Virus record (IMG/VR): IMGVR_UViG_2660238446_000005
Span: 1 to 4,748 of that record
Source of the DNA: a virus
Lineage: Duplodnaviria; Heunggongvirae; Uroviricota; Caudoviricetes
Length of the DNA: 4,748 nucleotides
Direction: 5' to 3' (one strand)
Part shown: positions 33 through 4,748 of the stretch, in pieces
How the letters are laid out: every line of letters starts with the position of its first letter
How positions within the stretch are numbered: position 1 is the stretch's first letter
The notes under the pieces: generated by a model
Told to the model about the DNA's origin: nothing
The model's input: only the letters and a program-made list of their open reading frames with translations
Databases searched by the model: none
Program-made: the position numbers and the translations under genes

Positions 33-1160
33 ATGGGTAAAGGCAGCAGTAAGGGGCATACCCCGCGCGAAGCGAAGGACAACCTGAAATCCACGCAGTT
101 GCTGAGTGTGATTGATGCCATCAGCGAAGGGCCGGTTGACGGTCCGGTGGATGGATTAAAAAGCGTGCTGCTGAACGGTACGCCGGTCCTGGACAGCGAG
201 GGGAAGACAAACTTTTCCGGTGTTACGGTGGTGTTCCGTGCAGGTGAGCAGGAGCAGACACCGCCGGAGGGTTTTGAATCCTCCGGCTCCGAGACGGTGC
301 TGGGTACGGAAGTGAAATATGACACGCCGATCACCCGGACCATCACGTCGGCAAACATTGACCGTCTGCGCTTTACCTTCGGTGTGCAGGCACTGGTGGA
401 AACCACCTCAAAGGGTGACCGGAATCCGTCGGAAGTCCGCCTGCTGGTTCAGATACAGCGTAACGGTGGCTGGGTGACGGAAAAAGACATCACCATTAAG
501 GGCAAAACCACCTCGCAGTATCTGGCCTCGGTGGTGGTGGATAACCTGCCGCCGCGCCCGTTTAATATCCGGATGCGCAGGATGACACCGGACAGCACCA
601 CAGACCAGCTGCAGAACAAAACGCTCTGGTCGTCATACACCGAAATCATCGATGTGAAACAGTGCTACCCGAACACGGCGCTGGTCGGCGTGCAGGTGGA
701 TTCAGAGCAGTTCGGTAACCAGCAGGTGAGTCGCAATTATCATCTTCGCGGGCGCATTCTGCAGGTGCCGTCGAACTATAACCCGCAGACGCGGCAATAC
801 AGCGGTATCTGGGACGGAACGTTTAAGCCAGCATACAGCAACAACATGGCCTGGTGTCTGTGGGACATGCTCACTCATCCGCGCTACGGCATGGGGAAAC
901 GTCTTGGTGCGGCAGATGTGGATAAATGGGCGCTGTATGTCATCGGCCAGTACTGCGACCAGTCAGTGACGGACGGATTTGGCGGCACGGAGCCGCGCAT
1001 CACCTGTAACTCTTACCTGACCACACAGCGTAAGGCGTGGGATGTTCTCAGTGATTTCTGCTCGGCGATGCGCTGTATGTCATCGGCCAGTACTGTGACC
1101 AGTCGGTGCCGGACGGCTTTGGCAGCACGGAGCCGCGCATCACCTGTAATGCCTGGCTGA
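33..1160 (+). CDS. J: J N-terminal ORF fragment (375 aa); last 27 residues are out-of-frame read-through of the duplicated segment
   Basis: ORF in frame 0; J-like sequence up to ...[10 protein letters not shown] at 1070, then [26 protein letters not shown] and stop. This is the same locus as the pseudogene call, listed separately in case the two pieces are annotated as separate CDS. Confidence 0.5.
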
Positions 1161-1210
1161 CCACACAGCGCAAGGCGTGGGATGTGCTCAGTGATTTCTG
1201 CTCGGCGATG
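931..1210 (+). repeat. Imperfect direct tandem duplication, 2 x 140 bp, internal to J
   Basis: Unit 1 (931..1070) and unit 2 (1071..1210) align without gaps with 12 mismatches (128/140 identical). The 9-mer cgctgtatg begins each unit and recurs at 1211. 140 is not a multiple of 3. Confidence 0.9.
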
Positions 1211-3652
1211 CGCTGTATGCCGGTATGGAACGGACAGATGCTGACGTTCGTGCAGGACCGACCGTCGGATAAGGTGTGGACCTATAACCGCAGTAATGTG
1301 GTGATGCCGGATGATGGTGCGCCGTTCCGCTACAGCTTCAGCGCCCTGAAGGACCGCCATAATGCCGTTGAGGTGAACTGGATTGACCCGGATAACGGCT
1401 GGGAGACGGCGACAGAGCTTGTGGAGGATACGCAGGCCATTGCCCGTTACGGTCGTAATGTCACGAAGATGGATGCCTTTGGCTGTACCAGCCGGGGGCA
1501 GGCACACCGCGCCGGGCTGTGGCTGATTAAAACGGAACTGCTGGAAACGCAGACCGTGGACTTCAGCGTGGGCGCAGAAGGGCTTCGCCATGTACCGGGT
1601 GATGTCATTGAAATCTGCGATGATGATTATGCCGGTATCAGCACCGGTGGTCGCGTACTGGCGGTGAACAGCCAGACCCGGACGCTGACGCTCGACCGTG
1701 AAATCACGCTGCCATCCTCCGGCACCACGCTGATAAGCCTGGTTGACGGGCAGGGGAATCCGGTCAGCGTGGAGGTCCAGTCCGTCACCGACGGCGTGAA
1801 GGTAAAAGTGAGCCGTGTTCCTGACGGTGTTGCTGAATACAGCGTGTGGGGGCTGAAGCTGCCGACGCTGCACCAGCGATTGTTCCGCTGCGTGAGTATC
1901 CGTGAGAACGACGACGGCACGTATGCCATCACCGCCGTGCAGCATGTGCCGGAAAAAGAGGCCATCGTGGATAACGGGGCACACTTTGACGGTGACCGGC
2001 GCGGCACGGTGAATGGTGTCACGCCGCCAGCGGTGCAGCACCTGACCGCCGAAGTCACCGCAGACAGTGGGGAATATCAGGTGCTGGCGCGATGGGACAC
2101 GCCGAAGGTGGTGAAGGGTGTGAGCTTCCTGCTTCGCCTGACCGTGGCAGCGGACGACGGCAGTGAGCGGCTGGTCAGCACAGCCAGGACGACGGAAACC
2201 ACATACCGCTTCAGGCAGCTGGCGCTGGGGAATTACAGTCTGACAGTCCGGGCGGTAAATGCCCGGGGGCAGCAGGGCGATCCGGCGTCGGTATCGTTCC
2301 GGATTGCGGCACCGGCAGCGCCTGTCACTATTGAACTGATACCGGGGTATTTTCAGATAACGGCGGTCCCGAAACTGGCTGTATATGACCCGACGGTGCA
2401 GTTTGAGTTCTGGTTTTCGGAAAAGCGGATTGCGGATATCAGGCAGGTTGAAACCACAGCACGCTATCTTGGCACGGCGCTGTACTGGATAGCCGCCAGT
2501 ATCAATATCAGGCCGGGCCATGATTATTATTTTTACGTTCGCAGTGTGAACACCGTTGGCAAATCGGCATTTGTGGAGGCCATCGGTCGGGCGAGCGATG
2601 ATGCAGAAGGTTATCTGAATTTTTATAAAGGGTTGATCAATAAAACGCATCTCGGCAAGGAGTTGTGGACGCAGATTGATAACGGTCAGCTTGCGCCGGA
2701 CCTGACTGAAATCAGGACGTCCATTACGAATGTCAGCAATGAAATCACGCAAACCGTCAATAAAAAACTGGAAAATCAGAGTGCTGCAATCCAGCAGATA
2801 CAGAAAGTTCAGGTTGATACAAATAATAACCTGAACAGCATGTGGGCTGTGAAGCTGCAACAGATGAAGGACGGACGCCTTTATATTGCGGGTATCGGTG
2901 CCGGTATTGAGAATACGCCAGCAGGAATGCAGAGTCAGGTGCTGCTGGCGGCAGACAGGATTGCGATGATTAATCCTGCGAATGGCAACACAAAGCCGAT
3001 GTTTGTTGGTCAGGGCGATCAGATATTCATGAACGACGTGTTCCTGAAATGCCTGACGGCTCCGACCATTACCAGCGGCGGTAATCCTCCGGCATTTTCC
3101 CTGACACCTGGCGGACGGCTGACGGCGAAAAATGCCGATATCAGCGGTAACGTGAACGCGAACTCCGGGACGCTCAACAACGTCACGATTAATAAGAACT
3201 GTCGGGTTCTGGGAAAATTGTCCGCGAACCAGATTGAAGGCGATCTCGTTAAAACAGTGGGCAAACCTTTCCCACGGGACTCCCGGGCACCGGAGAGGTG
3301 GCCATCAGGGACCATTACCGTCAGGGTTTATGACGATCAGCCGTTTGATCGGCAAATTGTTATTCCCGCGGTGGCGTTTCGCGGTGCTAAACATGAGCGG
3401 AAGAATAACAATATTTATTCGTCATGCCGCCTGATAGTGAAGAAAAACGGTGCTGAAATTTATAACCGAACGACCCTGGATAATACGCTGATATATACGG
3501 GTGTTATTGATATGCCTGCCGGTCACGGTCACATGACGCTGGAGTTTTCTGTATCGGCATGGCTGGTAAATGGCTGGTATCCCACAGCAAGTATCAGCGA
3601 TTTGCTGGTTGTGGTGATGAAGAAAGCCACTGCAGGCATCACGATTAGCTGA
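1106..3652 (+). CDS. J: J C-terminal ORF fragment (848 aa as called from GTG 1106); contains the putative receptor-binding C-terminal domain
   Basis: Frame 2 ORF. J-like sequence begins inside the second repeat unit (..[44 protein letters not shown]..). No Shine-Dalgarno sequence precedes GTG 1106, so independent translation is doubtful. Stop TGA at 3650-3652. Confidence 0.5.
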
Positions 3653-3670
3653 ATTTTATAACCCAGATAC

Positions 3671-3696
3671 GGGCACCAGAAATGGTGCCTTTTTTA
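3671..3696 (+). terminator. Rho-independent terminator downstream of J
   Basis: Perfect 7-bp stem ggcacca (3672-3678) / tggtgcc (3683-3689) with GNRA-type loop gaaa, followed by T-run tttttt (3690-3695). It lies 19 nt after the J stop. Confidence 0.7.
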
Positions 3697-3719
3697 TTGC
3701 AGAAAAGCGAGAGGTAATT

Positions 3720-4319
3720 ATGCGTAAAGTTTGTGCAGCCATTTTGTCCGCAGCCATTTGTCTGGCCGTATCCGGTGCGCCTGCATGGGCGTCTGAACAT
3801 CAGTCCACGCTGAGCGCCGGGTATCTTCAGACCCATACTGATATGCCAGGCAGCGATGACCTGAAGGGCATTAACGTGAAATACCGTTATGAGTTTACGG
3901 ATACGCTGGGGCTGATTACGTCATTCAGTTATGCCAACGCTGAAGATGAGCAAAAAACGCATTACAGCGATACCCGCTGGCATGAGGATTCCGTGCGTAA
4001 CCGCTGGTTCAGCGTGATGGCGGGGCCGTCTGTGCGCGTGAATGAATGGTTCAGCGCGTATGCGATGGCGGGTGTGGCTTACAGCCGTGTGTCGACTTTC
4101 TCCGGGGATTATCTTCGCGTAACTGACAACAAGGGGAAAACGCACGATGTGCTGACCGGAAGTGATGGCGGTCGCCACAGCAACACGTCTCTGGCGTGGG
4201 GAGCTGGCGTGCAGTTTAACCCGACCGAATCCGTGGCCATTGACCTTGCTTATGAAGGTTCCGGCAGTGGTGACTGGCGCACTGACGGTTTCATCGTGGG
4301 TGTCGGTTATAAATTCTGA
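3720..4319 (+). CDS. lom: Lom, Ail/Lom/OmpX-family outer-membrane beta-barrel protein (prophage lysogenic-conversion gene), 199 aa
   Basis: ATG at 3720 with GAGG at 3711-3714. N-terminal signal peptide MRKVCAAILSAAICLAVSGAPAWA with an AWA-SE cleavage-type site. Near-identical over long stretches to lambda Lom as I recall it (e.g. WHEDSVRNRWFSVMAGPSVRVNEWFSAYAMAGVAYSRV). C-terminus ends ...GVGYKF with a terminal Phe typical of outer-membrane beta-barrels. Same position as in lambda, between J and stf. Confidence 0.9.
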   Translation: MRKVCAAILSAAICLAVSGAPAWASEHQSTLSAGYLQTHTDMPGSDDLKGINVKYRYEFTDTLGLITSFSYANAEDEQKTHYSDTRWHEDSVRNRWFSVMAGPSVRVNEWFSAYAMAGVAYSRVSTFSGDYLRVTDNKGKTHDVLTGSDGGRHSNTSLAWGAGVQFNPTESVAIDLAYEGSGSGDWRTDGFIVGVGYKF

Positions 4320-4345
4320 TTAGCCAGGTAACACAGTGTTATGAC

Positions 4346-4372
4346 AGCCCGCCGGTTCAGGCGGGCTTTTTT
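4346..4372 (+). terminator. Rho-independent terminator downstream of lom
   Basis: GC-rich stem agcccgcc (4346-4353) / ggcgggct (4360-4367), loop ggttca, then T-run 4367-4372. It starts 27 nt after the lom stop. Confidence 0.75.
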
Positions 4373-4383
4373 GTGGGGTGAAT

Positions 4384-4710
4384 ATGGCAGTAAAGATTTC
4401 AGGTGTACTGAAAGATGGGGCGGGTAAACCTGTCGTAAATTGTGCGATTGAACTGCGGGCCAGAAGAACCAGTCCGACCGTTGTGGCACACGTTGTTGCC
4501 ACTTGCGTGACGGACAATAACGGTGCTTATGTGATTGAGGCTGAGCCGGGGTATTACGAGGTTGCGCTTCACTGTAACGGCTGGCAGCCAACCCGTGTCG
4601 GGGATATTGATGTGGCACCGACTGATGCACCGGGGACACTGAACGCGTTTCTGAATGCACCAAAGGATGGTGATTTACGTCCGGAGGTGATGAAGTGTCA
4701 GCGCCAGTGA
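4384..4710 (+). CDS. Side tail fiber (Stf)-like N-terminal domain protein, 108 aa; apparently truncated relative to lambda Stf
   Basis: ATG at 4384 preceded by gggg at 4375-4378 (an in-frame GTG at 4378 is an alternative start). The N-terminus MAVKISGVLKDGAGKPVVNCAIELRARR... resembles the lambda Stf N-terminus (MAVKISGVLKDG...), and similarity continues to about ...DGDLRPEV. TGA at 4708-4710 follows; the other two frames also hit stops within about 30 nt. Confidence 0.6.
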   Translation: MAVKISGVLKDGAGKPVVNCAIELRARRTSPTVVAHVVATCVTDNNGAYVIEAEPGYYEVALHCNGWQPTRVGDIDVAPTDAPGTLNAFLNAPKDGDLRPEVMKCQRQ

Positions 4711-4748
4711 TATAAGACGGTAATTCGCCATTTGGATTGTCCGCTCCA

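Follow-up and report, generated by a model that had tools for sequence, protein, structure and literature searches.

Why does a gene that begins like the side tail fibre gene (stf) of phage lambda stop after 108 codons, a few dozen bases before the edge of the sequence that carries it? The window analysed here, a stretch of viral DNA taken at its full length of 4748 bp, ends in just this way. A first-pass annotation, made from the letters alone, had read the abrupt end as a deletion or recombination junction, or as the boundary of a different downstream module.

According to the ORF list, three genes lie on the + strand of the window: those of the tail tip protein J and of Lom, and the truncated stf-like ORF. 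J, lom, stf is also the order of lambda's tail module. The lom gene (3720..4319, + strand) is intact and codes for an Ail/Lom outer-membrane beta-barrel protein of 199 aa, matched over its full length by PF06316 (428.6 bits). In a three-way alignment with lambda and an intact E. coli allele, the lom-stf spacer (4320-4383) is nearly base for base that of lambda; it is near-identical although the proteins encoded by the adjoining stf sequences share about 52% identity. Within the spacer a terminator scan finds a terminator-like GC hairpin with a T-run (4346..4373, hairpin 4346..4367, + strand). Its differences from lambda are few and located in the loop region, and the stem is still paired.

The stf-like ORF itself (4384..4710, + strand) has an ATG start and begins MAVKISGVLKDG; it counts 108 codons, or 110 if read from a GTG at 4378. 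Its residues 1-104 align without gaps to lambda orf-401, the N-terminal part of Stf, at 52% identity (E = 6e-33). They also match profile positions 1-104 of the 134 of Pfam PF08400, 'Prophage tail fibre N-terminal', with 126.4 bits against a curated cut-off of 26.6 bits. The 108-codon ORF with its sudden loss of homology, and its identity as the N-terminal tail-attachment part of a lambda-type side tail fibre, are thus as first described. Complete fibres carry a shaft and a C-terminal receptor-binding part in frame; this ORF ends at codon 108. Judged by its sequence, it appears to be a pseudogene fragment of the PF08400 family of lambda Stf type.

The exact place of the break was obtained by comparison with the intact allele of E. 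coli CFSAN029787, which encodes 471 aa and is annotated 'prophage tail fiber N-terminal domain-containing protein'. Bases 4300-4695 of the window match the lom-stf region of this strain at 99.5%, and the match ends there; 104 of 104 residues are identical between the intact protein and codons 1-104 of the ORF. Past codon 104, a Lys, the intact allele reads ...EVMK-RFEEMVAQAQQ..., while the window reads ...EVMK-CQRQ-stop. The breakpoint therefore lies at 4695/4696: not at about 4690, after ...DLRPEV, where the break had first been put, two codons early. On the + strand, the native 5' part of the gene (codons 1-104, 4384..4695) holds most of the PF08400 tail-attachment domain and is followed by Cys-Gln-Arg-Gln and a TGA stop (4696..4710). 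All three + frames do close around the break, with stops at 4688-4693 (TGA TGA), 4708-4710 (TGA) and 4713-4715 (TAA), that is, within 4688-4715. Members of the same cluster in S. boydii continue natively past codon 104 (...MKRFEE). Frameshift or sequencing error was ruled out, as the sequence past 4695 is unrelated to stf in any frame; the junction is structural, as had been proposed.

What lies beyond the break is the left end of the insertion sequence IS21. Positions 4696..4748 (+ strand) comprise its first 53 bases, namely the left terminal inverted repeat TGTCAGCGCCA and adjoining sequence, and the contig ends inside the element. These 53 bases are all identical (53/53) to the IS21 left end of plasmid pCFSAN029787_01, and they start with the 5'-TGT terminus typical of the family. 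It follows that the final four codons of the ORF and its TGA are IS sequence. An IS element was among the things that the first-pass annotation proposed to seek past the ORF, and one is present at the break itself.

The stretch 4692/4696-4748 has about 2,900 matches in E. coli, for the most part on plasmids and otherwise on chromosomes. The two matches that we inspected lie about 100 bases 5' of an istA-istB pair annotated as IS21, and their far-side flanks are unlike: an IS66 fragment in one case, an ISEc53 transposase gene in the other. Against NCBIfam transpos_IS21, reference istA reaches 284 bits; reference istB reaches 302 bits against Pfam IstB_IS21. The full reference copy measures 2131 bp and splits the ISEc53 transposase gene with a 4-bp target duplication, ATGT; it starts with TGTCAGCGCCA and ends with TGGCGTTGACA, its terminal repeats being TGTCAGCGCCA/TGTCAACGCCA. 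Both the length and the 4-bp duplication are those of IS21 in ISfinder.

Just outside the left end, the pCFSAN029787_01 copy and the stf insertion site (4692-4695 of the window) have the same four bases, GAAG. That GAAG is part of IS21 was ruled out: the flank of the second copy differs, and its 4-bp duplication puts the terminus at TGTCAG. The shared flank may be due to chance or to a target preference; the right end of the plasmid copy lacks a matching duplication.

The window is identical to the entire 4748-bp draft contig CXFO01000210.1 of Shigella sonnei (GCA_001252515.1). By exact-protein look-up, the 108-aa product is found on eight records; the same look-up with the 110-aa version starting at GTG found no record. 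The junction is identical in 8/8 of these records, which are the finished chromosome CP010829.1, that of S. sonnei FORC_011 (PMC5447701), and seven draft genomes. All the draft contigs end 30 or 53 bases into IS21. The contig stops at 4748 as the short-read assembler failed to cross the repeated IS21, and the window edge is near the breakpoint because this repeat broke the assembly. Table 1 of PMC5447701 gives Holt et al. 2012 as the source of other CX-prefixed records, from which we infer that the CX-prefixed drafts are the short-read S. sonnei genomes screened in PMC7373316, with a mean read length of 59 bp.

Other deposited sequences tell of the same edge. The databases already contain the 108-aa protein, deposited from S. 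sonnei under the name 'prophage tail fiber N-terminal domain-containing protein'; more than 1000 S. sonnei contigs carry 'partial' prefixes of 99, 102 and 104 aa, which is what one would expect if this IS generally breaks assemblies of the species. Among 5,426 complete E. coli genomes, none matches 4300-4748 in full: alignments end at 4695 or comprise the IS part alone. The left junction was not found in a pattern scan of GTDB representative genomes. GTDB merges Shigella into E. coli and keeps one representative per species, so an empty scan is the expected outcome. Nor did a pattern scan of metagenome contigs find the predicted right junction, in which the IS21 right end would be followed by 3-8 bases and by stf from codon 105 on.

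The 5' part of the contig is less regular than its end. The J gene (33..3652, + strand) is represented by two ORFs, 33..1160 and 1106/1238..3652, as defined by the ORF list, Pfam J domains and a self-BLAST. It is split by a 140-bp near-tandem duplication, in which 930-1079 and 1070-1219 are 92% identical. FORC_011 has a single copy of the duplicated stretch and an uninterrupted J of 1159 aa. Paralogous J genes of several lambdoid prophages have probably been misassembled here from short reads. On sister draft contigs the 'J' ORFs are odder still (1919 aa and 728 aa) and have no Pfam hit. Between the window and FORC_011 there are 53 differences, confined to J, lom and the spacer (within 359-4367) and clustered at 1096-1186 and 1750-1880; from 4368 to the window end the two agree throughout. 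For a clonal species this is a large number, and it suggests that the consensus blends paralogous prophage copies, or else that prophages have recombined with each other.

The finished chromosome permits the locus to be followed past the contig edge. We mapped the FORC_011 locus (coordinates of the extract, L004) by BLAST against the intact E. coli prophage and reference IS copies, the map thus covering one complete S. sonnei genome. Stf bases 1-312 (10001-10312) are followed by IS21 bases 1-432 (10313-10740). Next comes a complete IS600 in the opposite orientation (10741-12007), with a 3-bp duplication, GTT, on its flanks. IS21 resumes with bases 428-1102 (12003-12677) and gives way to a second IS600 (12678-13858), which is 5'-truncated and lacks its first ~90 bases. 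From 13859 onwards the sequence is again stf, from base 746 to the end.

The 3' stf remnant of FORC_011 covers residues 250-471 at 96.8% identity to the intact allele, has no stops, and is followed by a DUF4376 gene, the same gene that follows stf in E. coli. Between this remnant and the 5' part lie about 3.5 kb of IS material. Two istA fragments past the junction score 60.7 and 174.3 bits against transpos_IS21. Missing are stf codons 105-249 (433 bases of the Ala/Gln-rich shaft), the right half of IS21, and istB. To judge from FORC_011, the strain from which the window derives presumably has the same downstream architecture.

The prophage around the gene is itself a remnant. Upstream of stf (L004 1-5800), the Q antiterminator region leads through IS3-family fragments directly to the tail genes M, L, K, I and J. 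Between the Q region and the tail genes of the FORC_011 prophage, no lysis or head genes were found; with these gone, the prophage is defective. At the other edge of the remnant, about 5 kb from the break, the DUF4376 gene adjoins a sitABCD-like metal ABC transporter operon of four genes (L004 15300-18749, minus strand), which encode a ZnuA-type binding protein, an Mn/Fe ATPase (592 bits against the Mn/Fe ATP-binding model) and two permeases. This operon looks like prophage-associated cargo and is unrelated to the stf break.

We now propose that IS21 interrupts the stf-like gene after codon 104, in a defective lambdoid prophage of S. sonnei, and that the contig ends within the element; of this we are almost certain. 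In the simplest history, IS21 (2131 bp, encoding the IstA transposase and the helper ATPase IstB) would have transposed into stf after codon 104, its left end adding four foreign codons and a stop to give the 108-codon ORF. Copies of IS600 would then have inserted into IS21 and into stf. Finally, a deletion with one end in the second IS600 would have removed everything from IS21 base 1102 to that IS600. This order of events (IS21, then the IS600 copies, then the deletion) is the most economical reading of the FORC_011 map, and the stf remnant is presumably without function. With the right end of the inserted IS21 deleted in FORC_011, no target-site duplication is demonstrable next to stf, so IS21 could conceivably have come in by recombination instead of direct transposition.

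Might the junction instead be an artefact of assembly, the prophage contig being chimerically joined to IS reads and stf being intact in the real genome? The contig ends in a repeat, and the near-duplicate of 140 bp in J, absent from the complete genome, is an apparent assembly problem on that same contig. However, the junction recurs in the finished chromosome and in seven independently assembled drafts, and the finished genome runs on through 432 bases of IS21, so that we put the chance of a chimera at practically nil. It is also very improbable that the break is a boundary where recombination or deletion brought in a different downstream module, a cargo or effector locus of the kind found in EHEC prophages, as the first-pass annotation had considered. 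The 433 stf bases deleted downstream would fit such a boundary, and so would the Mn/Fe transporter operon just past the fibre genes. Yet the sequence at the break is an exact IS21 terminus, no effector gene is present, and after the IS debris stf codons 250-471 and DUF4376 resume, collinear with the intact E. coli prophage and 96% identical to it; this order lends no support to the notion of an exchangeable module at this point. Cargo near the tail fibre genes, correctly anticipated, is represented by the transporter operon, but the operon stands past the end of the fibre module and is not the cause of the break. Likewise, the deletion that had been suspected does exist, in that codons 105-249 are missing in FORC_011, but it falls outside the window and is secondary to the IS events; the break itself is the end of IS21.

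The ORF might, on the other hand, be a naturally short and functional Stf N-terminal protein under selection, for instance an attachment-domain decoy. It retains 104 of about 134 PF08400 positions together with the whole carboxypeptidase-regulatory-like fold, and it is conserved across the S. sonnei records; a known family of naturally short proteins with this exact end had been named as grounds against a junction, and a 108-aa protein ending so is indeed deposited from this species. But that end is made by IS sequence, which renders the match trivial, and in a clonal species such as S. sonnei conservation carries no weight. The head and lysis genes of the prophage have moreover been lost to IS events, and the relatives in E. 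coli and S. boydii continue natively. We give next to no credence to a short functional protein. That the 108-aa product is expressed from the prophage remnant, acts as a decoy against side-tail-fibre attachment of superinfecting lambdoid phages, and is kept in S. sonnei for this reason, is a highly doubtful idea.

Interruption by IS21 thus stands as the explanation, and both of its partners have well-known counterparts. The stf-like gene resembles lambda Stf (orf-401/orf-314 in lambda PaPa) in its position after J and lom, the near-identical spacer, the PF08400 domain and the N-terminal 104 residues. The intact E. coli allele differs from lambda Stf in its length of 471 aa, its other C-terminal part and its DUF4376 partner, which takes the place of lambda Tfa. 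In the sequenced strain lambda PaPa, stf is likewise inactivated, being split by a single-base frameshift, whereas stf of S. sonnei is split by an insertion sequence and a 433-base deletion. As for the element, the 53 bases in the window correspond to the left end of annotated IS21 copies, and istA follows in FORC_011; in contrast to those copies, the one in FORC_011 is broken by IS600 and has neither istB nor a right end, and is therefore a dead remnant.

IS21 is among the 12 IS types of S. sonnei 53G (Hawkey et al. 2020, PMC7373316). According to the same study, IS-driven gene loss is a hallmark of Shigella genomes, and pseudogenes made by IS elements are pervasive in S. sonnei; each reference genome contains 229-348 copies of IS elements and no fewer than 199 pseudogenes. 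The pattern of IS decay described there is seen here in full: an IS-inactivated gene, an IS600 nested in IS21, and an IS-bounded deletion.

IS-driven pseudogenisation of a prophage gene is already known in kind, and this instance is already in the databases. Its biological weight is accordingly small: it adds another defective-prophage gene to those that insertion sequences have destroyed in S. sonnei, a species in which such elements have expanded. The locus has something to teach about contig edges. When homology breaks off suddenly and stops close all frames, a few dozen bases short of where a short-read contig ends, this is the signature of an IS or other repeat boundary, and such edges should be compared with IS termini before a module junction is called.
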